A DNA stretch of 64,000 bases from Bacteroidales bacterium (GCA_045627865.1 JAZQOK010000018.1:41193-105192), one strand, 5' to 3'; counted from the first letter of the stretch, positions 3,167 through 63,756 are shown. Numbers and translations are program-made. Notes: generated by a model not told the origin, from the sequence alone.

Positions 3167-3428
3167 CAAAATTTGAGTTTTGCTGCTTCCGAAATTTTCG
3201 GAACAAGCAAAATTTGCGTTGCGCTGCTTCCGAAGTTTTCGGAACGAACAAAATTTGCGTTGCGCTGCTTCCGAAGTTTTCGGAACGAACAAAATTCGCG
3301 TTGCGCTGCTTCCGAAATTTTAGGAACGAACAAAATTCGCGTTGCGCTGCTTCCGAAGTTTTCGGAACGAACAAAATTTGAGTTGCGCTGCTTCCGAAGT
3401 TTTCGGAACGAGCAAAACTCAAATTTCG
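3167..3428. repeat. tandem array of six 41-bp units plus a partial seventh, each carrying a TTCCGAA-GTT-TTCGGAA hairpin; flanked by a 14-bp perfect inverted repeat
   Basis: Units start at 3167, 3208, 3249, 3290, 3331 and 3372 with consensus caaaatttgcgttgcgctgcttccgaagttttcggaacgaa. aaatttgagttttg (3169-3182) is the reverse complement of caaaactcaaattt (3413-3426). The units are contiguous with no spacers. Confidence 0.95.
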
Positions 3429-3485
3429 TACAAGCTTTAAGCAGATGAGACATTGCAACAAGCAAGTCAATCCAATAGAAAAATC

Positions 3486-3518
3486 AAATGCTCTACCTGC
3501 CAGACAAGTAGAGCATTT
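3486..3518. terminator. bidirectional intrinsic terminator between convergent deoC and the TolC-family gene
   Basis: Perfect 11-bp stem aaatgctctac / gtagagcattt with an 11-nt loop. An A-run lies before it and a T-run after. The right arm ends 3 nt from the TolC-family stop codon. Confidence 0.75.
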
Positions 3519-3521
3519 ATT

Positions 3522-4847
3522 TTAGTTTACGTTATAGAACTCGAGAATTTTGAGTCGCATCAGGAACTCATACTTGGATTGTAATTCATCCTGTAAGCTC
3601 TTCTGATGTTTTGTCGAGGCCTGTTGGAGATCATAACTAGTTCCCTTGCCTGACTCATACCGGTCAGCCTCATACTGATAAGCCAATTTCGTTGAGGCAG
3701 CAGCCTTTTGCGCTGAAGCATAATTATCACGAGCCTTGAGTGCATTCCAGTAAGCCTGTTGTATATCCTTGTGAAGCGACTGCTGTGCTTCAGTCAAGGC
3801 GACATTCTGGTTCTCGATACTCAAACGTGCACGACGCATGGCATTACGGGTTGAGAAGCGATCGAAAATTGGAATCGAGACATTGAGCCCAATCGATTTA
3901 TAGCCATGATCATTCAACTGATGACCGAAATCTTTCTGAGGAAATGGTGCATTGTACAGGTACTGATAACTGGTACTGTAGCCTGCACGCAGAGATACCG
4001 TCGGAAGATAGCCACTTCGAGAAGCTTTCAGTTCATATTTGCTACTTTCCAAACTATATTTGGCTGCCAGGATAGAGGGATAGCGTTCCAATGCCTGTGC
4101 AAAGACCGTTTCGACCGAAGAGACCTCATTGGTAACATTGGAGGTATTGATATCCTCGATAAAGAATGCCTCAACGTCGCATTCCAAATTCAAAGCCTGC
4201 ATCAGATCCAAACGTGCCATCACCTCGTTGCCAATAGCCTCTGTCAGGGAATGCTGACTAACAGCCAGCTGCGCTTCAGCAGCAGCCACTTCTGACTCAG
4301 GTTTCTTGCCAGCCTCAAAGAGTGCACGAGCCTTGGTCACTGCAGTCGAATCAAGCCCGACCTGCTGACGCTGGACATCTGTGAGGCCCTTGTAGTAGAG
4401 AGCATTGAGATAATAGCCTGCCACTTGAATACCAATATCTTTACGAGCCTTCTCGAGGTTGGCAGTAGCAGCCTTGAGAGCGAACTCATTCGATTTGATC
4501 TGATTGCTTACTCGAAAACCCGTAAAGAGAGGCATCTCTGCGTTCAATCCGAAATTGGTCGAAGTAGAATTGCTGCTGGTATATGAATTACTATCCTCTG
4601 AAGTGGTTCGGCCAAAGGACCAGCCCTGTCCGATGGAGCCACTCAAAGAGGGCAGGTAATTGCTTTTGGCACTACTTAGTTCAATCTCGCTGTTCTGTCG
4701 CTGTAGCTCCTTCTGTTGGATAGAGTTGCTATGCTCGAGAGCGAAATCGATACAATCCTGCAAAGACATTGCCTGTGCATTCGCAGTCAACGTCAACGTC
4801 AACGTCATCGACAACGTTAACGCCATTGTCTTATTCAATCTTTTCAT
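3522..4847 (-). CDS. TolC-family outer-membrane efflux protein
   Basis: Signal peptide (MKRLNKTMALTLSMTLTLTLTANAQA). Two-repeat TolC-like pattern (NYLPSLSGS ... SGYLPTVSLRAGYS). Last gene of the efflux operon. Confidence 0.85.
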   Translation of the reverse strand: MKRLNKTMALTLSMTLTLTLTANAQAMSLQDCIDFALEHSNSIQQKELQRQNSEIELSSAKSNYLPSLSGSIGQGWSFGRTTSEDSNSYTSSNSTSTNFGLNAEMPLFTGFRVSNQIKSNEFALKAATANLEKARKDIGIQVAGYYLNALYYKGLTDVQRQQVGLDSTAVTKARALFEAGKKPESEVAAAEAQLAVSQHSLTEAIGNEVMARLDLMQALNLECDVEAFFIEDINTSNVTNEVSSVETVFAQALERYPSILAAKYSLESSKYELKASRSGYLPTVSLRAGYSTSYQYLYNAPFPQKDFGHQLNDHGYKSIGLNVSIPIFDRFSTRNAMRRARLSIENQNVALTEAQQSLHKDIQQAYWNALKARDNYASAQKAAASTKLAYQYEADRYESGKGTSYDLQQASTKHQKSLQDELQSKYEFLMRLKILEFYNVN

Positions 4848-12215: not shown

Positions 12216-15200
12216 TTATTTCAAATAAGCTTCGATGATTCCGATGACGATATCATTCGACAGACACTCCAACTCAAGGCTCTTGACGACCTTCTTCGGA
12301 TCGAGCGACATCTCGAGCATCGTCGCAGCACCTCCATCGGTCGCAATGTTGAGGGCATCGGTACGCGGACGATAGTACTGACCCGTACGGAGACTCATGC
12401 GGAAAGGAGGTTGTATATCGTTTTCGAAATTCTGCAGATAGAAAGCAGGCAGACCTTGCGCCAGTTCCTGCTCGATAGGCCACCAGTTCACTGGGTTCTC
12501 GAGCACCAGTTCCTCGGTCGAGCCATCGGCATAGCGGACTCGCAAGAGACCATTCTCAATTCGGCTCTGCATCGCATTGGTCGTACCTACCATCTTCAGG
12601 TAGAGATGCGAAGCAGACTTCTTAGGCAGCTTGAAGACTAACTTGTTCGGGAAATTCTTCCACTGACTGGTAAATGCAGCCTTGAGTCCCAACGCATCGC
12701 TAATCTTGAAAGTATCGGTCGGATGACACCATTCACCGATGCCATGATTAGGCATACGCAGCGTGATCCGCTGACGTTTGTCACCCTTGTAGCTATAATT
12801 CTGTTTGAACAGATCAGCCACCTTCAGGTTGTGCTTCTTGGCAATGCTTGGCACCATGGTCATCGTAGCATAATCCAGCGTACTTGGATCGGTGTATTCA
12901 CGGATCTCTTGACGGGACACACGGTTCACCGAGGCAACGGTTCTGCGCTCCGACTGGGTCTGTTCACGAACCGAGCCATCCTCACAGATCCAGCGAACAC
13001 CCTCCTTGTCTGCCAGCTCGCCTGCAAAAGCAGATTTGGCTGGAGCATAGATCACAATGCTGTCATAACGATCGAAGAAATCTCCCTGGCCCATGAAGTA
13101 CCAGACGGCAGTATCGCCACGATAGCTGCGTGAAAACTCGAAATCAGGAGTAGCGAAACGGACATCCTTACCCTCCCATGCCGAAGGGAATCCTGGTTTG
13201 ATGGTCAGCACTCCCGACAAGAGATCAGGTTGCATACCGATCAGACCCTGAACCATCGTGCGACAAGTAATGCCTACCGGATCGCCGAAGTCGCGATAAC
13301 ATTCACCACGAGCGGCATCATAGAAAGAGATCTGTCCGATATTACCAGGACAACCACCCAGATACATGCCATCGCACAACGAACCCTTAAAGAGATTGTA
13401 GGCCTCGTCCGGACGACCAGCCTCCCAATAAGCCAAGGCCATGTGCATCTCTTCGGCCAGAGCGACATTGTTGATCGACCAGCCATAAGGCTGCCAGTTG
13501 GTGGTAGCGATGGCAGTGAGATTCTCGTCGACCGCTAACCGATCGTCACTAACCGAAATCTGATAATGCGGAATACAGCGATCCACATACTGTGTGGCGC
13601 GATATCTTTGAGCAGGAGTACCGACCTCACTGTCGATCGCATGATAGATCGTCCAGAGGGCAGGATGCTTGTGCTGACGTTTCAGACCCCAACGATCCTT
13701 ACATTCGGCCCAGACGCCCTCCTCTTCCATCCAAAGTTCCCGATCAATCGCACTCTGGATCTTCTCGGCCTCAGCCTCATAGCTCTCGGCCTTGTCGGTC
13801 TCGCCCAACAGACGGGCAATCTTGGCTGCCTGACGATTAGCACGGAGATTATAAGCCGAGCTATGGGTCACGGCACCACCATCGTAATAGAGGCCATCGC
13901 TTGCCCAAATGCAGCAATAGGCATCATACAAACCATCATTATCGGGATCGAAGGTTCGCTTCTCCCAGTCCAGATGACGGGTAATGGTTGGCCAGAAAGC
14001 GCGAGCCTCTTCAAGGTCTCCACTCCAGTTCAGGTGCCAGAGCAAAGCATCGATATAAACGAGGTTCATATCGTAGTGGTTCACCTTCTTCGGATTGTTC
14101 GGATAACGACCGATATAACCTGTCGTGAACATAGGATTGCCAAGTTTTTCCGTAGCACGTGCCTGGTTCTTGGCAGGATCCAGCCAAGGGATTGTCTTGT
14201 CAACCTCTACATCCACCAGCTGCGAATTGGCATAGCCCATAAAGTGACGCAGCTGACGATCCTGCCAGCCCATCACATCGCCCACATAAGCAGCACGCCA
14301 GCCAGGCAAAGGCATACGCCAGCCAATAGCTCCATGCTGCCATACGCCACTGGCTTCATCCCAGATTCCATTGGCAGCAGCAGGCAGCACATATTCGAGT
14401 GGATTGATCAGCGCATCCGGAGTCTCGACGGTATAATCAGCCACGAGAGCCGAAGCAATGCTGATGCTTTCAAAGAGCATCGTCTGCAGATTACAGATAC
14501 TATCCGATGGAGTACCAATAGCAAGAATCGAAGGCTGGTCCAACGGAATCAATCCCTTCAGATACTCAACCGAAGTACCATCATTGGCCTTACCCTCAGC
14601 AATCTGCATCTGAATACAAGGCGAGAACTGGCCACGCAGAGCTCGTTCACCGCGTTTGCTTCCCTTGCCATACTTCAGGTCGAAGGTCGATGCATTCAGC
14701 GAGTAAACATTCCCCTTGCACTTATCGAAAGTAAAATCAAAGCAATCTTTCTTGTCAACGCCCATATCACCATTACGGCTGAACGAAGCATTGCTAGCGG
14801 CACCGAAACGCACCTGCATCTTTGTACCAGGCTTGACATTCTTGCCCTCGATCTGCCAGATGCCGCCTGCGGTCGGAACCTGAAGAGCAAAAGCCGAAAG
14901 ACAGACAACTGCCTCCTGCTGTGCATTCTTTCGCATCGAAGCAGGCAAAACAATCTCGTAGTCACGGCTCACACCATCGTAGATTGCCTTGATGCTGGTA
15001 TGTTCGATATCGAAACGGACGTTACCGCCCATATAGGGCATATAGAGACCGAATTCAGGTTCATCGGAGGTCTCCAGGCGTGCAGCCTCGCAACGCCCAT
15101 ATAACGCGCGCGTAAAGCGATGCTTACCGTTGATGCATACGATACCCTCCTCCTCTGGCCAGTACTGCACCTCACGAGGAGCGAGTATCTTCTGGGCAGA

Positions 15201-16467: not shown

Positions 16468-16534
16468 TCTTATCGTTTAGATTACTTCCAAGCCTCGATG
16501 ATTGGCATGCAAATATATTAAAGTAAAAGTAATA

Positions 16535-16588
16535 GACACCTTTATGCCAATATTACTTCCATGCCTCGATGATTGGCATAAAGGTGTC
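16535..16588 (-). terminator. 17-bp perfect hairpin whose 5' arm is tpiA coding sequence, with the tpiA stop codon in the loop
   Basis: gacacctttatgccaat (16535-16551) is the reverse complement of attggcataaaggtgtc (16572-16588). The 20-nt loop contains TAA (16553-16555). The mRNA continues UAUUACUUUUACUUUAAUAUAUUU. Confidence 0.7.
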
Positions 16589-42635: not shown

Positions 42636-42674
42636 CGCACATTTTTTAATTATTTTATAAATCGAAAGAAAACT

Positions 42675-43766: not shown

Positions 43767-43779
43767 ACTTCATACGGAG

Positions 43780-43816: not shown

Positions 43817-43851
43817 CAACTCAATATTAATTTTTAAACTCATTAACTACA

Positions 43852-44021: not shown

Positions 44022-44196
44022 GTTTATGACCTCAGAGACCCCAGCCCAACCCCTCGGATGACAGAATGAGTGGGTCAGTAGGGGCTATTACCTTTGAATA
44101 GAAAGAACAACATAACACGAATAATATACCCCACCAAAGTATCTTTAAGCTTCCTCCATCGGGAGGGCCAGAGTGGGGTTTCAATCTTATACAACT

Positions 44197-45354: not shown

Positions 45355-45421
45355 ATGCTCGTACGAAAACCCCGAAGGGGACGCGAAACGTAGCTTAAGC
45401 AACGATAACGAAAACGAAAAC

Positions 45422-46240
45422 TTGAAATACTTCATCTATCTACAATACGACGGAACAGAGTATCACGGCTGGCAAACCCAGCCGGACGCTGTGACTGTGC
45501 AGGAGACCATCGAGCAGAAACTCTCGATGCTCCTGCGCCGTGAGATTTTCATTGTAGGTGCAGGCCGTACCGATGCTGGAGTACATGCCAGACTGATGGT
45601 GGCGCATTTTGTTCTGAAGGACGAAAACGATAACGTTAACGCTAACCCTAACGATAACCTTAACGATAACGTTATTGATTGCCAGAATCTAACCTTCAAG
45701 TTGAATCAGGTGTTGCCTCCCGACATCAAGATTCTGAAGATTGTTCCGGTGAAGGAGGATGCCCACGCCAGGTTCTCTCCTATCGCGCGTACCTATAGAT
45801 ATTATATTACGACCGATAAACCGCTCTATAACCGCAACTATGTGATGCGCACCTACGAGCCACTGGACATTGAGGCAATGAATCACGCTTGCGCCAAACT
45901 GTTCTGCTACGAAGATTTCACATCGTTCAGCAAACTGCACACAGACGTCAAGACGAACAATTGCAAAATCATGGAGGCTTACTGGACTCGCGAGGTCAAT
46001 CCTGATGGAGGCGAAAACTATATCTTCATGATCAAGGCGGATCGATTCCTCCGCAATATGGTACGTGCCATCGTCGGTACGCTGATCAAAGTGGGCCGCC
46101 ACCGCATGACGATTCAAGAGTTTGCACAGGTCATCGAGCGTAAAGACCGCTGTACCGCCGGCGATTCGGTTCCTGCCTGCGGTCTCTTCCTGGAGGAGAT
46201 TGAGTATCCTGAGGAGATATTCATCGAGGAAGAATATTGA
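45422..46240 (+). CDS. truA: tRNA pseudouridine(38-40) synthase
   Basis: KYFIYLQYDGTEYHGWQTQP with the catalytic Asp in GAGRTDAGVHA. A TTG start at 45422 is proposed. The ORF-track ATG at 45326 overlaps galK and adds 32 residues of repeat-derived sequence. Confidence 0.8.
   Translation: MKYFIYLQYDGTEYHGWQTQPDAVTVQETIEQKLSMLLRREIFIVGAGRTDAGVHARLMVAHFVLKDENDNVNANPNDNLNDNVIDCQNLTFKLNQVLPPDIKILKIVPVKEDAHARFSPIARTYRYYITTDKPLYNRNYVMRTYEPLDIEAMNHACAKLFCYEDFTSFSKLHTDVKTNNCKIMEAYWTREVNPDGGENYIFMIKADRFLRNMVRAIVGTLIKVGRHRMTIQEFAQVIERKDRCTAGDSVPACGLFLEEIEYPEEIFIEEEY
45626..45673. repeat. eight phased hexamers (AAC NNT) inside truA
   Basis: aacgat/aacgtt/aacgct/aaccct/aacgat/aacctt/aacgat/aacgtt encodes NDNVNANPNDNLNDNV. 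Confidence 0.9.
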
Positions 46241-46278
46241 CAACAATAAGACAACGATAACAGCTAACTTTAAGTTAT

Positions 46279-48303: not shown

Positions 48304-48332
48304 TCTAAGTTAAGCTCGCCAATCTATATAAT

Positions 48333-48384
48333 CTAGCTAATCTAGAAAAAAACTGGAAAAATCCAGCATATCTAGATTAGCTAG
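48333..48384. promoter_or_regulatory. 14-bp perfect inverted repeat with a nested 5-bp hairpin, between the two GH51 genes
   Basis: ctagctaatctaga (48333-48346) pairs with tctagattagctag (48371-48384). Inner ctgga-aaaa-tccag is at 48353-48366. No T-run follows. AATCTA occurs four times just upstream. Confidence 0.6.
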
Positions 48385-48403
48385 CAAAACAACCATAAAA
48401 ACT

Positions 48404-49984
48404 ATGAAAAAAACATTAGCAATTAGTGTAGCAGCCTTGTTGGGCAGCTGCATGCAGGCTCAGGACGTCACCCTGACTTTGCACCCTCAGCAGGCAGAGA
48501 CTGTCATTCCAAAGGAGATTTACGGACAGTTTGCTGAGCACCTCGGACGCTGTATCTACGGCGGCATCTGGGTCGGCAAGGATTCTGAAATTGAGAACAT
48601 CGAAGGGTACCGTAAGGATGTATTCGATGCCCTGAAGGAGCTCGAAGTTCCTGTGATGCGCTGGCCAGGCGGTTGCTTCGCCGATGAATATCACTGGATG
48701 GACGGTATCGGTCCACAGGAGAAACGTCCACGCATGGTGAACACCAACTGGGGTGGAACCGTTGAGGACAATTCGTTTGGTACCCACGAGTTCCTGAACC
48801 TCTGCGAATTGCTGGGTTGCGAACCTTACATCTCGGGCAATGTCGGTTCCGGCACTGTCGAGGAGATGGCTAAGTGGGTTGAGTATATGAACTCAGATAC
48901 CAACAGCACCATGGCTGAGGAGCGTCGCAAGAATGGCCGTGAGAAGCCTTGGAACGTGAAGTACTTCGGCGTCGGCAACGAAAGCTGGGGTTGTGGCGGC
49001 AACATGAAGATCGAATACTACGTAAACGAATACAAGCGCTACAACACCTATGCCCGCAACTACGGCAACAATAAGCTGTTCCGTATTGCATCGGGTGCTA
49101 ATGGTGGCGATACCCACTGGATGGATGTTGCTATGCGCGAGTGCCGTCACAATATGGATGGTATTTCGGTTCACTTCTATGCTGTACGAGATTGGGGTTC
49201 GGAGGATGATCCTATCACAGGTATTCCTATGGGCAAGAAGGGTTCAGCCCTGAAGTTCTCGGATCAGGAGTACTACGAAATCGTTTCGAAGTCACTCGAG
49301 TTGGAAGATGTTCTGAAGGCTCACATGAAGGTGATGGACAAATACGATCCACAGAAGCGAGTAGCTATCATGTTCGACGAATGGGGAACCTGGTTTAACG
49401 TCGAACCAGGCACCAACCCAGGCTGGCTCTACCAGCAAAGCACCATGCGTGATGCTGTCATCGCAGCTTCGTCGCTCGATATCTTCCACAAGTACACCGA
49501 CCGCGTGAAGATGGCAAATATCGCTCAGGTGGTTAACGTACTGCAGAGCATGGTTCTGACCAACGAAAAGAACCCTAAGGACCATTGCATCATGACTCCT
49601 ACCTACTACGTCTTCAAGATGTACAAGGCTCACAAGGAGGGCAAGTTCGTACCAGGCGAACTTACTTGCGAGAAGATTCAGGTGAACGAGAAGGAGCAGG
49701 TTCCTGTTGTTTCTCAGTCTGCTTCGATCAAGGAGGGTGTCATCAGCCTCTCTCTGTCGAACCTCGACGTAGCCAAGACCCACGTTGTGGCTGTCAACAT
49801 CGATGGTCAGAAGGTAAAGAACATTTCGGGCGAGATCCTTACCGCCAAGGATGTTCATGCCTACAACGACTTCGGCAAGCAGCAGGTCGCTACTACCGCG
49901 TTCAACGACTTCAAGATCAAGAAGGACGGCACACTACTCGTTACCATCCCTGCTCATAGCGTAGTTACTCTGAGCCTCAAGTAA
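48404..49984 (+). CDS. alpha-N-arabinofuranosidase, GH51
   Basis: Signal peptide. MRWPGGCFADEYHW and FGVGNESWGCGG. Confidence 0.85.
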   Translation: MKKTLAISVAALLGSCMQAQDVTLTLHPQQAETVIPKEIYGQFAEHLGRCIYGGIWVGKDSEIENIEGYRKDVFDALKELEVPVMRWPGGCFADEYHWMDGIGPQEKRPRMVNTNWGGTVEDNSFGTHEFLNLCELLGCEPYISGNVGSGTVEEMAKWVEYMNSDTNSTMAEERRKNGREKPWNVKYFGVGNESWGCGGNMKIEYYVNEYKRYNTYARNYGNNKLFRIASGANGGDTHWMDVAMRECRHNMDGISVHFYAVRDWGSEDDPITGIPMGKKGSALKFSDQEYYEIVSKSLELEDVLKAHMKVMDKYDPQKRVAIMFDEWGTWFNVEPGTNPGWLYQQSTMRDAVIAASSLDIFHKYTDRVKMANIAQVVNVLQSMVLTNEKNPKDHCIMTPTYYVFKMYKAHKEGKFVPGELTCEKIQVNEKEQVPVVSQSASIKEGVISLSLSNLDVAKTHVVAVNIDGQKVKNISGEILTAKDVHAYNDFGKQQVATTAFNDFKIKKDGTLLVTIPAHSVVTLSLK

Positions 49985-49991
49985 TAGCTTA

Positions 49992-51152
49992 ATGGTTACA
50001 GACCCAATGCTGTTTACCAATCTGATTATAACACTACCAACATTTGCATGCCTGTTCTGGGCATGCATTTTCTTGTTGGAATATCGTAAAGGCCCGAAGG
50101 AGAAGAGACTGATGTGCTGGTTTATGATTACAGCCACGCTCCTCTACTTCGGACACTATTGCTATTTCAGCAAAGCCTATGGGATTCTGCCCGTAACCGA
50201 CACGCTCTATTCCATGGCTAATCTGGCGGTATATCCGATCTACTATCTCTATGTCCGATACATCACAACCAACCGGTTAGAGATCAAAAGATGTCTGTTG
50301 GTTCTTCTGCCAGCGGCATTAATTGGCATCAGCAATCTGCTGGCCTACAGTTTCGAAAACAAAGAGAGCGTGGATGCCTTCATAGCAGAATACCTATACC
50401 ACGAAGAACGTGCGATGGCAGATTCCATAACCTATCATTGGCTGTATGTGAATCATGCTCTGGCAAGATTCTGCTTTGCCGCCATGGTGCTGATAACGAT
50501 ATTGCTTTGCTACAGGATGATCAGACAGTTCGACCAAAGGCTCAAGGAGTTCTATTCTAACCGCGAGGGGCGAAATATGAATGTGATCATGACCCTCCAA
50601 ATCAGCATGGTAATAACGTCGGTCGGAGCCGTCATCCTAAACGTACTGGGAAAATCATTTTTTGTCGACAACATCCTGTTGGCCATCCCTTCGCTTGCTT
50701 TTTCATCGTTGCTGTTTGCGATAGGATACGATGCCTACCGACGGACATTCACAGCAAGAATATTCGAGGACGAACAGAAGAACGCACCTATAGAAGAGCT
50801 TTCCACCGAAAAGATCGAATCAGAATTATCAGTTCGTCTTATCAAAATCCTGAACGAAGAACAGCTGTATCTGCAGACCGACCTGAAGATTACAGACCTG
50901 GCACGAGTTTTGGCGACAAACCGAAACTATATCTATCTGGCCATCAAGAATGACCTGAACACAAACTTTTCGGACCTGATCAACAAGATGCGCATCGAAC
51001 ATGCACAGAAGCTCATCGACAAAGATCCTTCCTGCCCCTTGTCAGAAGTTGCACTAATGTCTGGATACACCTCCGAAAGTTCATTCTATCGCAACTTCAA
51101 GAAACAAACAGGAGCAACACCTGCGGAACACAAGAGAAGAGAACAAGGATAA
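49992..51152 (+). CDS. membrane-anchored AraC-family transcriptional regulator
   Basis: About 240 aa of TM helices, then an AraC HTH pair (ITDLARVLATNRNYIYLAIK ... VALMSGYTSESSFYRNFKKQTG). Starts 8 nt after the GH51 stop. Confidence 0.8.
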   Translation: MVTDPMLFTNLIITLPTFACLFWACIFLLEYRKGPKEKRLMCWFMITATLLYFGHYCYFSKAYGILPVTDTLYSMANLAVYPIYYLYVRYITTNRLEIKRCLLVLLPAALIGISNLLAYSFENKESVDAFIAEYLYHEERAMADSITYHWLYVNHALARFCFAAMVLITILLCYRMIRQFDQRLKEFYSNREGRNMNVIMTLQISMVITSVGAVILNVLGKSFFVDNILLAIPSLAFSSLLFAIGYDAYRRTFTARIFEDEQKNAPIEELSTEKIESELSVRLIKILNEEQLYLQTDLKITDLARVLATNRNYIYLAIKNDLNTNFSDLINKMRIEHAQKLIDKDPSCPLSEVALMSGYTSESSFYRNFKKQTGATPAEHKRREQG

Positions 51153-51216
51153 TCCGGAGAACAGGATATAACCCAGAACCAAGATTAATCCAGAGAACAA
51201 GAGACAACCAGACAAA
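51131..51216. repeat. degenerate ~18-bp tandem units (ending AGAACA) spanning the AraC-family stop codon
   Basis: caagagaagagaaca/aggataatccggagaaca/ggatataacccagaacca/agattaatccagagaaca/agagacaaccagacaaa. The stop TAA is at 51150-51152. Confidence 0.7.
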
Positions 51217-51256
51217 AAAACAAGAGGTGTACCCGTACGGCACACCTCTCTTTCTA
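51213..51256. terminator. bidirectional intrinsic terminator
   Basis: 8-bp stem agaggtgt / acacctct plus two inner GC pairs. An A7 run lies before it and tctttct after. Confidence 0.7.
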
Positions 51257-51281
51257 TATATATGTTTAAGTGGTTATGTAA

Positions 51282-52487
51282 TTATTGCTTGGTCAAACGA
51301 CAAGGCAGATTGGCAACATTCGAGAAGGCGAAATCACCCAAAGGAAGGAACAGACGAGTGAAATCTTTGCCAAATGGAGGCTCTGAATTCCAACTATTGG
51401 GTGAAGGTTCCTCGTAACCATTCTTATAATCATCGATGCCACAAGGACGTGCTTCATTGACGAGATACTTGGTTACATGGAAATTAATATAACCATTCTC
51501 GCAGGTAAATGTACCCTTCATACGCTGCCCCCATGAAGGAATAATAAAATCGAAGTTGTCACCATCGAAGATCATGGCCGTACGAACATCATACTGACCA
51601 TCATTCCGGTCCATAAACCACAACCAGGTTCCCTGAACATCCTTTGAATTCATTTCGATCTTAGCATCCTTCTTATAGAAAACCATCATGCCATGATCCT
51701 CGTAAACCTCCACCAGATTGCCCTGGTTATCCTGGTATGTATAGATTGGAATAATGACAAGAGCCTGATTATTACGATACACCTCGATTTTGGCCTTATG
51801 TGGCTCAATCTGATTCTTATCAGAAGATGTCGCAACTGGAGTCATATAGACGATGTCGCCCTCAAGGACATAAGTACCTGCTTCATACGCAACACTATCC
51901 CAATCCTCCATGATCGAATAGGTCTTATCGGTCAGGGTGAGTATGGTGGTATAGTCCTCACTCTTCATCAACCACACACCGGCAAGCGAGGCGGCATCGC
52001 CACCAACGTTACCCGAGTCTGAATTCAATATCTCAACATCCTTAATGACCGAAACAACCGTACCATCGACAGTCTCAGCATTAACGGTAATCTTCACGGT
52101 CTCAGAAACTCCATCGCCAACGGCAACAACGACAACGTAAGAATAGGTAGAATTTGCACCACGTACAGCCGACGCATTATTACTGAGAGCTTGTGCCGGA
52201 CACTCCAAATAACCATCGACGCCAGCTACAGCAATAAAGAATTTGCTTAATTCAACAGGACTGGTAACAATAATACTGGTCGATGTTTCGGTCTTGGTCA
52301 CATGGTTTGTGAGACCTTGTACCTGGTCGGTTACAGCAGGAATGGATCCCTGTTTAACAACGGCATCGACAACACCCAATACCTGCTCAATTGCAGACTT
52401 TACATCGCCTGAATCATCATCGCTGTCGCAACCTGTAAAGGAAAATGCGGCAAAGGCCATCATGGCCATAACAAAATACTTTTTCAT
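51282..52487 (-). CDS. lipoprotein of unknown function
   Basis: Lipobox SFTGC followed by DSDDDSGD. Beta-rich, with repeated GTW/GVW-containing lipocalin-like segments. No family recognised. Confidence 0.6.
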   Translation of the reverse strand: MKKYFVMAMMAFAAFSFTGCDSDDDSGDVKSAIEQVLGVVDAVVKQGSIPAVTDQVQGLTNHVTKTETSTSIIVTSPVELSKFFIAVAGVDGYLECPAQALSNNASAVRGANSTYSYVVVVAVGDGVSETVKITVNAETVDGTVVSVIKDVEILNSDSGNVGGDAASLAGVWLMKSEDYTTILTLTDKTYSIMEDWDSVAYEAGTYVLEGDIVYMTPVATSSDKNQIEPHKAKIEVYRNNQALVIIPIYTYQDNQGNLVEVYEDHGMMVFYKKDAKIEMNSKDVQGTWLWFMDRNDGQYDVRTAMIFDGDNFDFIIPSWGQRMKGTFTCENGYINFHVTKYLVNEARPCGIDDYKNGYEEPSPNSWNSEPPFGKDFTRLFLPLGDFAFSNVANLPCRLTKQ

Positions 52488-52586
52488 AATAATAAATTAA
52501 TTAATGTGGGATTTGATACCGCAAAGATAAACTATTTTTGATGTAAAGACACTTGCAAATTCGCAAATCAGGACTCCTAATATAAC

Positions 52587-52622
52587 AAAAAAGCACACCA
52601 GAACGGTGTGCTTATATTTTTT
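52587..52622. terminator. intrinsic terminator after the 52636-53997 gene
   Basis: 9-bp stem aagcacacc / ggtgtgctt with a 5-nt loop. U-runs are present on both strands. Confidence 0.8.
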
Positions 52623-52635
52623 GATGATTTTGAAT

Positions 52636-53997
52636 TTATTTGTCTGGGTACTTAACGAAATACTCCTCAACAGCATTTACGTTCTTCTCAATAGCAGCAA
52701 CCCAAGGCTTGCGGTGAGAATCATCCTCCTCGTTAGCAGCGAGGTAAAGCTGACGCTGAATAAGGTTCTTCCATTCGTCGCTGCGGAAATACTTACGCTG
52801 GGTAAGAATGTATTCGATCAAAGACATTGAACGACCGAAGTCAGCCAACTCCCACTCGCCATTCTCACGGATGAGCTGCATATTCATGCTTGACTTAGAG
52901 ATATCAAAGCCCTTGACATTGGCTACGTTCAAATATACTGATACATAATCATCAGTAATAGGAATAACGTGTGCGCTGCTGATGAAAACGAGATCATCCT
53001 CAGGATTGTTGACGAGGTAGTTGAGCTTCTCATGACGCATCTCACGGCCGAAAGCATCAATAGGAACTGCAAATGCGTGGGTCAGCAAAGCGTGAAGCTG
53101 CTTTGAGAATGCCTTCTCTACGTTTGGAAGGTTACAAGCAGCATCCTTGCAAGTGCGGCCAGGAATAGCATTGAAGAGAGCACGAACACGCTTCTCGTTC
53201 AAACCAGAAGCAATGAGACGTCTCTGAATTTCAGGCGAAGACTCGATAACGAAGGTTGGCTCCTTCTCACCTGCAACAGTGATGTTATCTGGGTACTTCT
53301 CCAAGTATGCATCGATATCGCTCAACATACGACGAGAAGCATCACGCTCCTTAACTTTATAGCGTGGGTAGTTACCCTCGAAACGCTCCTTCTCGAACCA
53401 ACGGCGCCACTCTAGTGAGCGGAAGCAAAGACGCTGATCGCGGATGAAGTCCTTGATTTCAGACTTGAAACGGTCCCTACCTACAGCGAAGTCATCAATA
53501 AGCCAATGACCGCCTGAAGGGATCAAACTCAAAGTGGTTACGATGTGTGAATACTCACGAGAGTTAGAATAGCCAACGTAGCAGTAGCTGGCATATACCT
53601 TAGCGAAAGTAGAATCGTTAGAGTTGTAGATCTTAACGGAGTCAACGGTGGTTACGTCACGATCACAAATCTCACCAAAGATACTTGATGCGAAATAAGC
53701 GGTACGGAGAGGTGACTCAACGTCCATCAAATCCTTTGACTCACGAATCAATGCAGCAGCATCGAATGAGCAAAGGTTCTCCTTCTTCTCATTCTCCTCG
53801 CCCTTGAAAGTAGGCAAAGACCAGAACAAACGCTCAACGATTGAGTCAGTCAATTCTTCACAAGCTTCAATGGAGTCGTTACTTACACTTGGTACGATGA
53901 CGGTCGGAGCAGACTGCTCCTTTTGTCCGGAACATGCGGCCAATGTTGCAACTGCAAAGAGACCGGCAATCAACTTAAATGAATTTTTCTTATTCAT
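52636..53997 (-). CDS. lipoprotein of unknown function with an internal two-module duplication
   Basis: Lipobox TLAAC. Two modules end alike: ...HWLIDDFAVGR ... IDAYLEKYPD and ...EWELADFGRSM ... VEEYFVKYPDK. Confidence 0.6.
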   Translation of the reverse strand: MNKKNSFKLIAGLFAVATLAACSGQKEQSAPTVIVPSVSNDSIEACEELTDSIVERLFWSLPTFKGEENEKKENLCSFDAAALIRESKDLMDVESPLRTAYFASSIFGEICDRDVTTVDSVKIYNSNDSTFAKVYASYCYVGYSNSREYSHIVTTLSLIPSGGHWLIDDFAVGRDRFKSEIKDFIRDQRLCFRSLEWRRWFEKERFEGNYPRYKVKERDASRRMLSDIDAYLEKYPDNITVAGEKEPTFVIESSPEIQRRLIASGLNEKRVRALFNAIPGRTCKDAACNLPNVEKAFSKQLHALLTHAFAVPIDAFGREMRHEKLNYLVNNPEDDLVFISSAHVIPITDDYVSVYLNVANVKGFDISKSSMNMQLIRENGEWELADFGRSMSLIEYILTQRKYFRSDEWKNLIQRQLYLAANEEDDSHRKPWVAAIEKNVNAVEEYFVKYPDK

Positions 53998-54337
53998 GGA
54001 TTATAATGAATATATAATAATAATTGCATTCGGGTTTACGGTGCAAATATAAAGAAAAAAATTTATATGCCATCAAAAAATCATAAAAAAATTAAAATTT
54101 CCTCTTATTTTGTGTCTTTTGGTTCATTTCGAATAGATAGAGACCCCCAATTTGAGCGCAATTGCACAACAAACCTCGTCATTTTATCCCATAAACGAGG
54201 GCATGAAAGCAAGAAATCAACCAGGATTGAATTCAGCAAAAAATATACAATAATAAAATATTTTACGCACCATGCAATTTTTTTGTAACAATTCCGTTAT
54301 ACCTTATAATATAATAAACACACATCCAACCTATCGA

Positions 54338-55120
54338 ATGTTAAACGCGAACAGAGAGGCAGCCCTACAGGCCATCAAGACTGAACTGGAATCGTTCGGG
54401 CCTATCGGGCTCGATCAGATGAAGAAGGTCAAATTGATGAACCGTATCGATACCAAATACGTCATCCCGCTTGCTCAATTAGCTCCGCTTCTACACATTG
54501 CGGCGCCAGAATATTTTGTGCAATCCACCGACGGAAAACGTACCGCCTCTTACCACACCATCTATCTGGACACGGCCGATCACAGGATGTACAATCTACA
54601 TCAAGTGGGTCGAAAAGTCCGTCAGAAGATACGAATCCGACAATATCTGGACACCCAGAACACCTTCCTCGAAATCAAGAACAAAAACAACCACGGACGC
54701 ACCAAGAAGAAACGCATCGAGGTTCCCCTGATGGATTGCATGTCGCTCGCGGATTGCGTTGATTTTGTGGCCGAAAAGTCCTGGTTCAAGATGGACGAGC
54801 TCCGCAAGCATGTCGAGAATCGGTTCGAACGAATTACCCTCGTAAACCGTGGGTTCTCCGAACGATTAACCATCGATCTGGGTGTGCATTTCCACAATTA
54901 CGAAACCGGACGCGATGCAGACATCGGCCATTTGGTTATCATCGAGCTCAAACGCGATGGTGCAACCTATTCGCCGATGTATAATCTCCTGCTCCGCATG
55001 CACATCCACCAAGGTGGATTCAGTAAATACTGCATCGGATGCGCATTGACCAATCCGGCTCTCCGACAAAACAATTTCAAGGAGAAGATACATCGGATAG
55101 ATTCACTTCGTTCACGATAA
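54338..55120 (+). CDS. VTC-domain (CYTH-like tunnel, polyphosphate-polymerase-like) protein
   Basis: RIDTKYVIP, YHTIYLDTADHRMY, RQKIRIRQY, FLEIKNKNNHGRTKKKR and LVIIELKRDG match the basic-tunnel pattern of VTC domains. ATG at 54338 was chosen over the ORF-track start at 54272. Confidence 0.7.
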   Translation: MLNANREAALQAIKTELESFGPIGLDQMKKVKLMNRIDTKYVIPLAQLAPLLHIAAPEYFVQSTDGKRTASYHTIYLDTADHRMYNLHQVGRKVRQKIRIRQYLDTQNTFLEIKNKNNHGRTKKKRIEVPLMDCMSLADCVDFVAEKSWFKMDELRKHVENRFERITLVNRGFSERLTIDLGVHFHNYETGRDADIGHLVIIELKRDGATYSPMYNLLLRMHIHQGGFSKYCIGCALTNPALRQNNFKEKIHRIDSLRSR

Positions 55121-55208
55121 ATATCGCTATGCGAAGTTAAAAGTTCACTTCGTTCACGATAATTATCGCTATGCGAGGTTAAAAGTTCACTTCGTTCACG
55201 TTAAATAT
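55102..55208. repeat. 42-bp tandem repeat (2 full copies plus a partial one) spanning the VTC stop codon
   Basis: Copies start at 55102, 55144 and 55186. Copies 1 and 2 match at 40 of 42 positions. Each contains the palindromes acttcg..cgaagt and cgata-aa-tatcg. Confidence 0.9.
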
Positions 55209-55344
55209 AACATGTTAAATATTGCATGTTAAATAACCCAAACATTTAACAGTTTACTATTTAACGCCAAAGGCTTTTAACGTGAGGCAAAGCCGAACTT
55301 TTATCGTGAGTACAAAATACGAACATTTAACATTTTAATATATT

Positions 55345-56040
55345 ATGATTTTTGATCTAATTTCTTTCGCTGCCAAAGTGGCAGACGAGGCTGATGCCCT
55401 GATGGGAGGCGACGAGCCTGTATTTGAGTTTACCGGACTGTGGGATCTGCTTCTACACTTCGGGTTCAATCTGATATTCGCAATCGGTATTATTCATTTG
55501 CTCTATTTCCGTCGCAGCCGCCGTGCCGACTACTATTTCACCTTTGCCTTGATCAGCATCTCCATCTTCCTGATGCTCTATCTGTTGGGTTCAGTCAAGA
55601 TCAAAATCGGATTCGCTCTCGGTCTGTTTGCCATCTTCGGCATCATCCGTTATCGTACCGAATCGATGCCAGTACGAGAGATGACCTATCTCTTCGTGAT
55701 TATCTCTATGAGTGTAATCAATGCGTTGGTACACGATTGGGTAAACCTGGTGGCAGTTGACAGTCTCTTCTTCTGCTCTTGCCTATTGGGCGAGCAGACA
55801 CGTCGTTTCAAGCACAATGCCTGCAAGTATGTCAAATATGACCGTATCGATCTGATTCTCCCTTCGAAGAAGGCAGAAATGATTGCAGATCTTGAAGCTC
55901 GTTTGGGCGTCAAAATTCTTCGCGTGGATGTCGGCACAGTCAATTTCCTCAAGGATATGGCACTCCTCAAGGTTTATTACGAACCCCTGGATGACAATGA
56001 GGAGAACACGGTTGACGAGATGACCAAGATTCCATCTTAA
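55345..56040 (+). CDS. DUF4956-like integral membrane protein
   Basis: Four or five TM helices followed by a about 90-aa cytosolic C-terminal domain. It sits in the usual partner position next to a VTC-domain gene (recollection). Confidence 0.6.
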   Translation: MIFDLISFAAKVADEADALMGGDEPVFEFTGLWDLLLHFGFNLIFAIGIIHLLYFRRSRRADYYFTFALISISIFLMLYLLGSVKIKIGFALGLFAIFGIIRYRTESMPVREMTYLFVIISMSVINALVHDWVNLVAVDSLFFCSCLLGEQTRRFKHNACKYVKYDRIDLILPSKKAEMIADLEARLGVKILRVDVGTVNFLKDMALLKVYYEPLDDNEENTVDEMTKIPS

Positions 56041-56050
56041 TATAACGACT

Positions 56051-56058
56051 TATTTTTG
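56051..56058 (+). promoter_or_regulatory. candidate -7 box (TATTTTTG) upstream of the beta-barrel gene
   Basis: Exact TAnnTTTG match, 73 nt upstream of the ATG at 56131. A 7-bp inverted repeat acgcgga/tccgcgt follows it. Confidence 0.4.
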
Positions 56059-56130
56059 GCACGCAGATTACGCGGATAAAGCAGATATAAATTTCCGCGT
56101 TCAACTGTACATGTCAACAAATCAACGATT

Positions 56131-56883
56131 ATGAAAAAATTATTTTTCATTCTATCCTTCTCCCTTTTCCTTTCTCCCTTTTCCTTTCTCCTCGCAGAGG
56201 ATACTGGCGTAGGCATCGAGGTTTCGGCATCGAAGAAGATCGTCAAAGGACTGGAGGCTTCGGTCGAGGCAGAAGTCCGCACACAAGATGCAGTAAGCCA
56301 AATGGAGCGCTGGAGTATCGGCGCTGGCATAGATTATAAGATACTCAAGTGGCTCAAGGCAGATGCCGGTTATATCCTGATCGATCGTTACAAACCATCG
56401 CACTCCTATCTTTCGGACAAAGGCAACCTGAAGGAGGTGGAAAGTATCTGGTCGCCACGACACAGGGCCTATGCCTCGGTCAACGCCAGTTGGAAGCCCA
56501 ACAAGCATTGGGATTTCTCGCTCCGCGAACGATATCAGTTTACTTACGAAACCGAACAGCATGCCAAGTGCATGAACCTGACGAAGAACAAACGCGATGA
56601 CGACAAAGTGTATGGTGGCGAGGCAGAACACCTGCTCCGTTCACGCATCCAGGCCAAGTATATCATCAAGAAGAAATGTCCGTGGGTTCCTTTCGCCAAC
56701 ATCGAGGCACTCAACGATCTGGAGAAGGGATTCGAACTCGACCAGATGCGATACACCCTCGGCACAGACTATAAAATCAACAAAAAGAATTCATTGGGCC
56801 TCGCCTATCGTTTCAAGGACAAGACAACCAAAGACGAAGACAAAGGCCATTTAATCACTTTCAGTTACAGCTATGACTTCTAA
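56131..56883 (+). CDS. putative outer-membrane beta-barrel protein (DUF2490-like)
   Basis: Signal peptide, alternating hydrophobic beta-strand pattern, and a C-terminal ...ITFSYSYDF ending in Phe as in OMP barrels. Confidence 0.5.
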   Translation: MKKLFFILSFSLFLSPFSFLLAEDTGVGIEVSASKKIVKGLEASVEAEVRTQDAVSQMERWSIGAGIDYKILKWLKADAGYILIDRYKPSHSYLSDKGNLKEVESIWSPRHRAYASVNASWKPNKHWDFSLRERYQFTYETEQHAKCMNLTKNKRDDDKVYGGEAEHLLRSRIQAKYIIKKKCPWVPFANIEALNDLEKGFELDQMRYTLGTDYKINKKNSLGLAYRFKDKTTKDEDKGHLITFSYSYDF

Positions 56884-57931
56884 ATTATCATGGGCGTTGG
56901 CATTAACCCTGACGCTGACATTAACCGCCTGCAACGATGACGACAAGCCCTACATCGACCAAGGACCAGATCCAGTTGTAATTACCCGCACCATGGCCGA
57001 TTCCATCTGGATGGAGCAACTCGGACAAGGCACCCCAACCATGACCGAAGCCGACGTTCCATCGGACACAGCCCAGGCCTATTACGACGACTACATCCAG
57101 AACTGGATTATGCCCGACGAGGAGATTCGAGACATCGAAATCACCTTTACCAACGATACCGTAACCTGGAAATACCCAGACGAGAAGAAACAAGGCACAG
57201 CCAAGGCGGTAAAGATGGAGGCTCATGGGGCACACCTCATTGTCCGAAACGAGAACGTAACGGAAACGGGTGAAGCCGATGGTCGCGCGCGTGTAAACTA
57301 TGTTTTAAGAGGACAATCCGAGCATGCCTCAATCCGCATCTACAGCAACAAGAAGTTCATGATTACCCTCGATGATGCTCAGCTCACGAACGACAAAGGT
57401 TCGGTCATCAACGTGCAGAAGTCGCTCGAAAAGAAGCGTGTGTTTATCTGTCTGAAAGGCAACAACTATATCGCCGATGCAACACAATATAGCGATACCG
57501 TGGTTGGCGAAGACGACAAGGGAGCCATCTTCAGCGAAGGCAAGATGATCATTACCGGCAACGGAGTCCTGAAAGTAAAGGGCAACTGCGGTCATGCTAT
57601 TGCCAGCGACGACCGCATCCACATTCACGGAGGCGCAATGGTCGAAATCGAAGAGGCTGCCAAAGATGGTCTTCATGCCAAAGAGGAGATAGTCATCTCA
57701 GGCGGTTGGGTTCGCAGTTTTGCAGCCAAAGATGCCGTTCAGGGCGCATCACTCTACTTGCGTGGCGGTTGTCTGATGGCTGCCGGACCCAACGCAGTTT
57801 CTGCACCTGTGTTCGACTACTCTGGCGGTCAATTCTGTCTGGTCGGCAACAGCACCGACACACCGACTTCCGGTTCTACTTCCTGGATCCTGACCGAGAA
57901 TCCTGGTTGGGTAATCGTTACCAGCAAATAA
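56873..57931 (+). CDS. lipoprotein with Cthe_2159-type beta-helix ('carbohydrate-binding domain-containing protein')
   Basis: Lipobox LTLTAC. Repetitive beta-helix rungs (KGAIFSEGKMIITGNGVLKVKGNCGHAIASDDRIHIHGGAMVEIEEAAKDGLHAKEEIVISGG). Overlaps the upstream gene by 11 nt. Confidence 0.55.
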   Translation: MTSKLSWALALTLTLTLTACNDDDKPYIDQGPDPVVITRTMADSIWMEQLGQGTPTMTEADVPSDTAQAYYDDYIQNWIMPDEEIRDIEITFTNDTVTWKYPDEKKQGTAKAVKMEAHGAHLIVRNENVTETGEADGRARVNYVLRGQSEHASIRIYSNKKFMITLDDAQLTNDKGSVINVQKSLEKKRVFICLKGNNYIADATQYSDTVVGEDDKGAIFSEGKMIITGNGVLKVKGNCGHAIASDDRIHIHGGAMVEIEEAAKDGLHAKEEIVISGGWVRSFAAKDAVQGASLYLRGGCLMAAGPNAVSAPVFDYSGGQFCLVGNSTDTPTSGSTSWILTENPGWVIVTSK

Positions 57932-62336: not shown

Positions 62337-62359
62337 AAGAGAGAGTTATTTCGTTTCGG

Positions 62360-62520
62360 GATTCAAGATTCGGGATTCAAGATTCGGGATTAACGATTAT
62401 CGATTAGCGATTAGCGAACATCGTGCATCGTGCATCGTGCATCGTGCATCGTGCATCGGTTATCGTGCATCGTGAATCGTGCATCGTGCATCGGTTATCG
62501 TGCATCGTTTATCGGTCTAC
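62360..62520. repeat. 23 consecutive heptamers in unbroken 7-bp phase (GATTCAA/GATTCGG/GATTANC/GTGCATC families)
   Basis: Every unit starts with G. GTGCATC accounts for 10 of the 23 units. The array fills most of the gap between the kinase stop (TAG at 62517-62519, inside the last unit) and the PL11 start (62336). Confidence 0.95.
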
Positions 62521-63668
62521 CAATCAAACAATCTGTCGCCCCAAGGATAACTACCCGGTTTGAAGATTACATGAATGGAAGGAGATTGGACGGAACGCAT
62601 ACGGACCACGCCAGGAGCAATCTGATCTGTGATCTCGAAGTCAGTCCAGCAGAGACGCTGCATGACGGCAAAAGCGGTAGCACCACCCTCGATGATCAGT
62701 TCTGAAGGAAGCATTTTTTCGACCAACGACAGAACGACCGACGACATCTCTGTACGCAGGCGTAAGGCTGAAGCTGGAGAACAACTGCTTTCGTATGGAA
62801 TATTCAGAATCAGGCCATTGCGGGCAGGCTGGATGGCAGCACGCGAGAGGTGTCGGACCTGGATGGTAGCCAGCCAATAGGCTCCACCCTGATTGCCATC
62901 GAACACATCGCGAGGCATCGAGTTGATAGGGATCTCACGTTTGCGGATGTAGGGACGGGACGAGAGGTCGGTGCTTTGGGTAGAACCGCAGACGATCAGC
63001 GGAACAGCAGTACGGCTCATACCTGCGAACTCTTTGTCCGATGACTGGACATGTCCAAGATATTCGAGCAGTCCGGCAAACAGATCGGCAGCACCCGCCA
63101 ACAAGGTCAGGTCTGGTCCCTGCATCGCCTGACGAACCGCCTGACGGATATCCTCCTGGCAGATGGCATCGCACACACGGATACGGCTCATCGGAGTAAT
63201 CTGCAGACGCAGGCAGATACTGGCTGTATGGGCAGGGAACTCGGGGTCGAGCGCGAACTTGGTCTGATCGATCGGTTCATTGTCGATATAGTAACAGCCA
63301 CCACGGATGGTGCGACCCTTGCTTGGATTGGCCGGAAGATAGAGTACCTGCTGATAGGCGGTATTTTCGAGCAACGTCTGCAATTCTCCCACCACATAGC
63401 CACGAAGGGCGGAATCCACCTTCTTGAAGAGAATCAGTCGCTCGGAGGCGGTAGCGAAAGTTGTCTGCAGTTTGCGGCAGATATTCTGAGTTTCGGCTAT
63501 GGCCTGCACCTCCGACATCGATCGGGTGTCGGTAGCCAACACCACCAGCTGCGACTTAGGCAGAGAATCGGGCACTCGCGTCAACAAAGTTGTCGTGAGT
63601 CCATTGGCATAGCCCAAGCCTGCAATCTCGGCGGCTCCGGTTATATCGTCTGCAATTACGAATATCAT
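62517..63668 (-). CDS. four-carbon acid sugar kinase family protein (DUF1537-type)
   Basis: N-terminal MIFVIADDITGAAEIAG is characteristic, and the two-domain size (383 aa) fits. Confidence 0.7.
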   Translation of the reverse strand: MIFVIADDITGAAEIAGLGYANGLTTTLLTRVPDSLPKSQLVVLATDTRSMSEVQAIAETQNICRKLQTTFATASERLILFKKVDSALRGYVVGELQTLLENTAYQQVLYLPANPSKGRTIRGGCYYIDNEPIDQTKFALDPEFPAHTASICLRLQITPMSRIRVCDAICQEDIRQAVRQAMQGPDLTLLAGAADLFAGLLEYLGHVQSSDKEFAGMSRTAVPLIVCGSTQSTDLSSRPYIRKREIPINSMPRDVFDGNQGGAYWLATIQVRHLSRAAIQPARNGLILNIPYESSCSPASALRLRTEMSSVVLSLVEKMLPSELIIEGGATAFAVMQRLCWTDFEITDQIAPGVVRMRSVQSPSIHVIFKPGSYPWGDRLFDW

Positions 63669-63672
63669 TTAA

Positions 63673-63756
63673 TAGTTTTCAGTTTTGAGTTTTGAGTTTT
63701 CAGTTTTGAGTTTTCAGACGGTGCGGTGCGTGTCGGACACGCTGCGGAGTCGGAGA
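63673..63756. repeat. six (C/G)AGTTTT heptamers running into GC-rich heptamer-phased sequence with a 15-bp palindrome
   Basis: tagtttt/cagtttt/gagtttt/gagtttt/cagtttt/gagtttt at 63673-63714. The palindrome gcgtgtc-g-gacacgc is at 63728-63742. Confidence 0.85.

Follow-up and report, generated by a model that had tools for sequence, protein, structure and literature searches.

Long simple sequence repeats (LSSRs), as they are related in PMC4679880 and PMC4692102, have units of 5-11 nt among which heptamers dominate; they were described by Mrázek, Guo and Shah in 2007, with slippage proposed as their origin, and Mrázek and colleagues suggested that the preference for 7 nt may match the length of DNA held by the polymerase. 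Rehm et al. (2015) described G-rich heptamers, GGGAATC in Xanthomonas and GGGGA(C/T)T in Nostoc, of which about 90% are intergenic, at a mean distance of 28 nt from the upstream open reading frame (ORF) and 160 nt from the downstream ORF; many lie 0-50 nt from a stop codon or overlap it, few lie between divergent genes, and their length and sequence vary widely at the same loci between close relatives (PMC4692102). TAACTGA repeats (MacGregor 2015) are found in Beggiatoaceae, some Cyanobacteria and five Bacteroidetes (PMC4679880), and, since the unit has a stop codon in each of the three frames, some of these arrays extend over the upstream stop. BrickBuilt, in Porphyromonas gingivalis, is a transposable element of the miniature inverted-repeat type (MITE) with an internal 23-nt minisatellite, present in 19 copies per genome (PMC4596501). 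Here we analyse degenerate, phased tandem arrays that follow or span stop codons in a window of 64,000 nt, the whole stretch of DNA under study, from a Bacteroidales bacterium (GCA_045627865.1, JAZQOK010000018.1:41193-105192). The arrays are probably long simple-sequence repeats (micro- and minisatellites) that have arisen repeatedly in place in one uncultured Bacteroidales lineage and turn over quickly, and they look like a mutational by-product rather than a new regulatory device.

A preliminary description of the window could name no equivalent for the arrays. Described equivalents do exist among LSSRs, the Xanthomonas and Nostoc heptamers, TAACTGA repeats and the repeats of cyanobacteria, and the arrays fit a known repeat phenomenon, without a genome-wide unit. 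Like LSSRs, so far as the two papers portray them, they run head to tail without spacers, have heptamers as the modal unit and are sporadically distributed among lineages, with periods that are not multiples of 3 confined to intergenic DNA and multiples of 3 tolerated in genes; the window arrays also exceed what composition predicts and differ between strains by whole units. Unlike LSSRs, they are strongly degenerate, their units differ at every locus, and in the lineage's sampled loci they account for 12-16% of intergenic DNA. As far as the literature compared shows, no Bacteroidales lineage has been singled out for LSSRs. The arrays resemble the Xanthomonas and Nostoc heptamers in lying nearer the upstream stop than the downstream start and in being rare between divergent genes, but those heptamers have one genome-wide, G-quadruplex-capable unit, whereas the arrays here have neither G-runs nor a shared unit, and the window holds no tandem GGGAATC or GGGGAYT. 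With TAACTGA repeats they share intergenic heptamers and indels in 7-nt steps between strains (PMC4679880). TAACTGA repeats have a single unit and are mostly oriented to the start codon, ending one to a few nt upstream of it, whereas the window arrays lean to stops; the window contains two single copies of TAACTGA and no tandem dimer.

Tandem heptamers in non-coding operon spacers of cyanobacteria were reportedly described by Mazel et al. in 1990 as short tandemly repeated repetitive (STRR) sequences, and the arrays are like them in being tandem heptamers in non-coding spacers. STRR sequences have a few fixed units (CCCCAGT, TTGGTCA, CAACAGT) dispersed genome-wide in heterocystous cyanobacteria; the present host is a member of the Bacteroidales, and tandem dimers of these three units are absent from the window. 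Since array units abut without spacers and the period equals the unit length, the unique spacers of a CRISPR array are lacking.

The 34 intergenic regions (IGRs) of the window (4978 bp) contain 18 arrays covering 926 bp at a Tandem Repeats Finder (TRF) score of at least 30. In 100 dinucleotide shuffles of these IGRs, 2.9 ± 1.4 arrays covering 70 bp were found; at a score of at least 50, the counts were 7 in the window and 0.08 in shuffles. The arrays are thus non-random. Base autocorrelation in the window IGRs, which is independent of TRF, peaked at lags 7, 14, 21, 28, 35 and 42 (z from 5.7 down to 3.6), and this lag-7 comb survived removal of the spacers that hold the 41-mers and 42-mers; IGRs of more distant Bacteroidales loci gave no lag-7 peak. 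Comparison with other genomes, which had been proposed as a check, drew on 64 loci (about 1 Mb) collected around homologues, part of the genus-level set having been picked around a spacer already known to carry arrays. The shares of IGR bp within arrays were as follows:

Window, 15.9%
Genus-level loci, 12.4%
Family-level loci, 5.7%
Other Bacteroidales, 1.7%

The array load is about ten-fold apart between this family and the other sampled Bacteroidales, suggesting that replication, repair or selection for compactness differs in this lineage. Unit lengths are mostly 7 nt, with 6, 8, 12, 14, 18, 41 and 42 nt also present. Among periods that are not multiples of 3, period 7 is the commonest, with 30 arrays; none of the remaining ones has more than 8. 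In the related loci IGRs represent 8.6% of bp, yet they hold 58% of the arrays with periods that are not multiples of 3.

The genes beside which arrays had been reported, all eight of whose names were confirmed by Pfam, are:

2263-3153, plus strand, deoC
20768-23362, plus strand, clpC
32132-32926, minus strand, cdaA
62517-63668, minus strand, four-carbon-acid sugar kinase
42633-43766, plus strand, galM
44173-45354, plus strand, galK
49992-51152, plus strand, AraC-family gene
54272-55120, plus strand, VTC

TRF and direct reading of the sequence recovered all eight reported arrays; at galK alone, just a 12-nt motif (TCGTACGAAAAC, at 45359, 4 nt after the stop) lies near the stop, and the array proper abuts the truA start. 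The arrays that follow or span stop codons, including a repeated tpiA 3' end, are:

3167-3417, plus strand, 41-nt minisatellite of 6.1 units starting 13 nt after the deoC stop (TRF)
23350-23385, plus strand, five AGCCAAT heptamers across the clpC stop, giving the last codons AANN and stop (TRF and direct reading)
32080-32135, minus strand, heptamers (sense CGATGAG, CGATGCT, CGGTTAG) that span the cdaA stop and run on to 18 nt short of a CNNM-family gene start
62355-62508, minus strand, 22 in-phase heptamers ending at the kinase stop
43787-43817, plus strand, hexamers within a 40-nt hexamer element starting 11 nt after the galM stop
45359-45421, plus strand, galK-truA spacer with TCGTACGAAAAC, a small GC hairpin, and hexamers (45401-45421) up to the truA TTG start
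51138-51209, plus strand, degenerate 18-mers across the stop of the AraC-family gene
55102-55235, plus strand, 2.5 42-mers (55102-55208) across the VTC stop, then 2.6 14-mers, in a 224-nt operon junction
16552-16579 and again 16481-16508, minus strand, 28-nt copy of the tpiA 3' end including the stop (repeat family D10, 96% identity)

The kinase array, which fills the spacer between the kinase stop and the start of a rhamnogalacturonan-lyase gene, drifts from TTCGGGA/TTCAAGA through TTAGCGA to GCATCGT without a single indel across its 22 units. The AraC 18-mers show 67% matches and 8% indels, so the claim that phase is strictly kept holds for the former and fails for the latter. Hairpin terminators, said to lie beyond the arrays, do so in the window at clpC (23386-23415), AraC (51222-51250) and deoC, but in the related locus L058 a hairpin precedes the array. 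The left stem arm of the clpC terminator, AGCCAAC, resembles the array unit AGCCAAT, and the AraC 18-mers (51138-51250 region) resemble the sequence leading into the AraC terminator; such resemblance hints that arrays may be seeded beside hairpins.

The window alone cannot demonstrate anchoring at stop codons, because its IGRs are short. Five of the eight reported arrays occupy spacers so short (57-180 nt) that proximity to a stop is forced, and by a hand estimate the chance of all eight falling within 40 nt under random placement is about 0.2. Among the related loci, 25 individual arrays were nearer a stop and 16 nearer a start (p = 0.21), in a count that took several arrays per IGR and treated orthologous IGRs separately. 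These figures favour pure geometry, in which long arrays in short IGRs come close to stops by necessity. A block test was then applied, with one block per IGR, orthologous duplicates dropped, and random placement of each block within its own IGR. Of the blocks in co-directional IGRs, 23 were nearer the stop and 8 nearer the start (p = 0.011), and 15 of 32 touched or overlapped the stop against 6.3 ± 1.6 expected, a count that none of 20,000 simulated placements reached; 4 touched the start. Uniform placement, or arrays equally common at 5' ends, which had been named in advance as telling against anchoring, is therefore not what the roughly 1 Mb of related loci shows. The excess is present for heptamers alone, of which 7 of 12 blocks are flush with the stop where 2.0 would be expected (the stop lies at a median of 1.5 nt, the start at one of 23.5 nt), and it recurs in loci from outside the window's lineage. 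Divergent IGRs make up 33% of IGR bp yet supply only 11 of the 58 array-bearing IGRs, an about 2-fold depletion (p = 0.013), and in no case among the 11 is an array flush with a start. The block test refutes geometry as a complete explanation, and we regard that explanation as very improbable. The stop bias is real and moderate. It is not exclusive, since arrays passed over in the preliminary description lie at 5' ends in the window:

63674-63717, minus strand, 6.3 heptamers (sense GAAAACT/CAAAACT) ending 5 nt upstream of the kinase start
63801-63821, plus strand, three TTTCAGC heptamers in a divergent spacer, 13 nt ahead of the start codon of a four-helix-bundle gene
38516-38567, strand not assigned, 4.3 units of the 12-mer CGGTTGGCTGCG in a divergent spacer of 492 nt, about 85 nt ahead of an Mfa-like fimbrillin gene
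2231-2261, plus strand, A/C-only array of the (AACAAAAC)n type filling the 33-nt spacer from a polysaccharide-deacetylase stop to the deoC start

A pathway that would produce this distribution can be proposed. Replication slippage or template switching would first create a short tandem duplication, and most of these would do harm where the genome is compact. Because translation does not go beyond the first copy of the stop, a duplication across it does not alter the protein, and one directly after the stop would likewise spare the protein; the start side would be guarded by the translation-initiation region and the promoter. With duplications within genes and start regions selected against, the surviving seeds would sit at stops. 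Slippage and unequal exchange would then add or remove whole units, point mutations would let the units drift while phase is kept, and the resulting arrays would be largely neutral. Strains do differ in copy number by whole units, as this step would have it. Units whose length is not a multiple of 3 would stay outside genes, and arrays with 6-, 12- and 42-nt (6 x 7) periods do persist in frame inside genes:

29784-29825, minus strand, six in-frame heptamers (42 nt) in a gene for a membrane, ArnT-like glycosyltransferase-like protein, encoding AMSGERSAVSGEPV
45621-45674, plus strand, in-frame hexamer/12-mer array inside truA, encoding DENDNVNANPNDNLNDNV

The seeding step is supported by stop-flush units that often contain the stop together with the last codons, as at cdaA, ClpC and tpiA and in the related loci L005 (units AATTCATGAT / AATTCATGGT) and L010 (AATGCAT / AATGCAC). 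The cdaA stop TAG sits within a unit-like CGTTTAG that adjoins CGGTTAG units. At tpiA, the last eight codons and the stop (MPIIEAWK-stop) recur 71 nt downstream, in the spacer before a SPOR-domain gene, and to judge from its sequence this repeat looks like a relic of a tandem duplication across the stop codon. In a more distant Bacteroidaceae metagenome-assembled genome (MAG), 19 heptamers (AGAGTAC/AGAGCAA) start right at a stop codon (L019, 9070-9203), and the orthologous site in L031 (9159-9198) holds a shorter, diverged version.

Turnover was followed among relatives of the window. The closest relatives of its VTC-domain protein come from uncultured gut and rumen Bacteroidales MAGs; the top relative, in L001 (JAZRXX010000017), has 90% amino acid identity, and window positions 44322-57926 are syntenic with L001 at about 79% nucleotide identity. 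Exact-protein look-ups with the window kinase, DeoC and CdaA matched no record, and a metagenome scan with the kinase returned a sole relative at 31% identity, so strains were compared through homologue searches and contig look-up. A DeoC entry (P0121), listed at 100% identity, was not located, and a search for ClpC homologues returned mainly partial, distant proteins, among which P0241 alone was informative.

Length polymorphism between strains, another of the proposed checks, was found in the kinase-lyase spacer. All relatives there (L056-L060, 85-98% amino acid identity of the kinase) carry in-phase heptamers; the window has 24 units in 180 nt and L056, whose kinase is 98% identical, about 13 units in 108 nt, and L057 has three whole units more than L056. 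In L058 the hairpin comes first and other units follow, and in L059 and L060 the units are CGATAAC, CGATAGC and CGCCCAT. The two independent short-read contigs L056 (1-21) and L057 (1-70) begin within the heptamer array upstream of the kinase gene, indicating that arrays break short-read assemblies. The kinase 5' heptamers are present in both of these loci, and L057 adds an AAGGGTA family.

Other orthologous spacers differ in their units or lack arrays. The deacetylase-deoC spacer holds 33 nt of (AACAAAAC)n in the window, a related array of 92 nt in L061, and the unrelated heptamers ATGGTAA and TTTACAA in L062 and L064, where DeoC is 97% identical. The 68-nt galK-truA hexamer spacer is absent from L001 because galK and truA overlap there (ATGA); the AraC array is also absent from L001, and the VTC spacer there has a different array, of 16-mers. 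The VTC junction, 10-22 nt in most Bacteroidaceae, is expanded to 67-224 nt in the window's family, mostly with unrelated 7-, 8-, 11-, 16- or 42-mers; no array was detected at this junction in L002 and L003. The junction has thus expanded independently with unrelated units. With units that differ by locus, and orthologous IGRs that hold other copy numbers, unrelated units or none, the view of the preliminary description that a process rather than a single repeat family is at work is supported.

That description had also considered a functional class of 3' untranslated regions (3'-UTRs). The arrays could accordingly be a selected intercistronic or 3'-UTR element: an unstructured spacer, serving translation uncoupling or as an A-rich leader, a multivalent platform for an RNA-binding protein with a 7-nt register, or a set of three-frame stops against read-through. 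Arrays do persist at the same spacer across relatives while their sequence changes, the centroid structures of short-unit arrays are essentially unpaired, a number of arrays that closely precede starts consist largely of A and C and are poor in G or lack it, and many units hold TAA, TAG or TGA, which a 7-nt period puts in all three frames; binding of S1, Csp or CsrA was proposed by MacGregor for TAACTGA repeats. Against such an element, no unit or motif is common to different array loci and sequence is not conserved; strand orientation is inconsistent, orthologous L001 spacers are without arrays, a junction of 10-22 nt suffices in most Bacteroidaceae, and arrays occur inside genes too. Rfam 15 gave no match at the gathering threshold on either strand of the whole window. 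The fold energies of short-unit arrays were indistinguishable from those of shuffles (z -1.5 to +1.1) and so give no sign of selection for unstructured RNA. A functional 3'-UTR class is therefore not upheld, and we consider a selected element unlikely. A narrower form, in which a sequence-flexible intercistronic spacer evolved in this Bacteroidales family, is kept at operon junctions and is regenerated by slippage, seems more doubtful still; it would be, for instance, a 7-nt-register platform for a ring-shaped or multimeric RNA-binding protein, or a translation-uncoupling three-frame-stop device. Two specific candidates were rejected. A consistent sense-strand unit CGNTAAN fails because the cdaA spacer carries CGCTAAC antisense, whereas L056-L060 have it in sense orientation in their kinase spacer, and Rho-utilisation sites fail because the sense strands are not consistently C-rich or G-poor, the cdaA array being G-rich on its sense strand.

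Whole-unit changes between close strains also raise the question of contingency loci, in which a change in copy number would switch or tune adjacent genes as in the phase variation of simple sequence repeats (SSRs). Copy number does differ between close strains, arrays lie just upstream of the kinase and Mfa-like fimbrillin starts, and a variable array precedes the rhamnogalacturonan-lyase gene. Most arrays, however, follow housekeeping genes (clpC, cdaA, deoC, galM, tpiA), their degeneracy lowers slippage rates, they lie neither between promoter elements nor in 5' coding regions, and it is not obvious how a change of 7 nt in a 3' flank would turn anything on or off. Phase-variable SSRs are near-perfect repeats that belong to a surface or virulence gene and lie in its promoter spacer or 5' coding region, where a change in units switches expression; the array at 38516-38567 is the only possible candidate for this pattern. 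Contingency loci thus have very little probability as an account of the arrays. The 38516-38567 array is the one window array placed suitably for phase variation; an ORF drawn across it (38492-38734) looks spurious.

The 41-mer array after deoC and the 40-nt hexamer element stand apart. Each 41-mer unit is a hairpin (TTCCGAA-N3-TTCGGAA), the array is bounded (3167-3426) by the 16-nt inverted repeat AAATTTGAGTTTTGCT / AGCAAAACTCAAATTT, and its fold z is -5.8, with -5.4 for the VTC 42-mers. It shares with BrickBuilt, as the only array to do so, a spacer-free structure, small inverted-repeat ends, an intergenic position, strong predicted structure and a Bacteroidales host, and so has the structural features of a BrickBuilt-like MITE; BrickBuilt, however, has 19 copies per genome, and unit length and sequence are unrelated. 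The array is absent from L061, L062 and L064, and from L063 despite a DeoC identity of 99%, a different gene following deoC there. It has the look of an element confined to one strain, perhaps MITE-like, at the junction of a rearrangement, and that it lies so near the deoC stop is probably incidental. An ORF of 115 codons that runs through the array (3123-3470, minus strand) is spurious.

The 40-nt element (GAKACTTCGTACGAAAACGATAACGATAACGAAAACAAAA) was found at two loci, the copies being 39/40 identical:

23285-23324, plus strand, element with (ACGAWA) hexamers (23295-23324) inside the 3' coding end of clpC, encoding ENDNDNEN
43777-43817, plus strand, second copy, which follows the galM stop by 11 nt and precedes a 38-codon ORF by 35 nt

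Each copy opens with the perfect palindrome TTCGTACGAA, and the first 12 nt of the element recur after galK (45359-45370). Where the window ClpC has ENDNDNEN, the homologue P0241 (89% identity) has a shorter YENDNR, and its tail ends in DI instead of AANN.

These two features speak for the idea that the arrays are parts of small MITE-like mobile elements with internal minisatellites, inserting just after genes. The 41-mer array combines its inverted repeat and hairpin units with a synteny break and absence beside a 99% identical DeoC, the 40-nt element recurs in two near-identical copies and a third, partial one, each opening with the palindrome, and BrickBuilt offers a precedent. The heptamer arrays, however, have no terminal inverted repeats, shared ends or target duplications, and units differ between loci. 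The 41-mer unit was found at one locus only, in a single array copy in the 64 kb, with none in 62 related loci, and the 40-nt element in none of the 60 related loci searched; viral contigs contained neither. We therefore find an origin of the arrays as mobile elements decidedly improbable.

Several observations weigh against repeated origin in place with rapid, neutral turnover. Kinase-lyase heptamers persist in one spacer across relatives of 85-98% amino acid identity, and arrays recur at the VTC junction; such persistence could mean that some spacing is selected for. Even with the array block taken out, array-bearing IGRs exceed array-free ones in length (median 68 against 18 nt), so arrays are not simple insertions into minimal junctions, and a model of that kind is supported only in part. 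When a 20-nt exclusion zone before the start was imposed, a stop-flush excess persisted (15 observed, 10.9 expected, P = 0.007), so the constraint model needs a wider, variable zone. The 39/40 identity of the 40-nt element at two loci indicates that some arrays were copied between sites, and not just formed in place. Genes in the related loci were called with a simple ORF caller of our own, which makes start positions approximate.

If origin by slippage and survival at stops is nonetheless correct, the arrays would mainly record how mutation and selection act on what little unconstrained sequence a compact genome has, with the stop codon as a sharp edge of constraint across which duplications cost nothing. 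Their main interest would lie in the unusually high array load of the lineage and in the clear illustration they give of arrays gathering at stops. They would be usable as strain markers, as variable-number tandem repeats (VNTRs), for an uncultured gut or rumen lineage. Arrays can also rewrite C-termini, as in ClpC, add low-complexity loops, as in TruA and the glycosyltransferase, and mislead gene callers, as the ORF through the 41-mer array does.

Some minor features of the window accompany the arrays. The truA array is of the NNNAAC type and encodes Asn-X repeats; L001 is without it and has similar hexamer arrays (CATAAC, TAACCCTAACGT) elsewhere (1859-1929 and 12445-12495). The coding-region array at 29784-29825 and a shorter heptamer-type stretch within a glycoside-hydrolase gene (13531-13556) are both of the CGCTAAC/CGGTGAG type. 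Between galM and galK, the 38-codon, Lys-rich ORF (43852-43968, MAKSEKKRKKVFGFHTAFNKASKVQEAQAAAMAAYLKK) gave no NCBIfam match and has its own strong terminator (43992-44010). The four-helix-bundle gene (63835-64000), which resembles the 23S rRNA intervening-sequence protein, has an in-frame TAA at 63952-63954 where relatives would have Gln, and it matches TIGR02436 only with this stop translated as Q; the gene is a pseudogene or else affected by a sequencing error.

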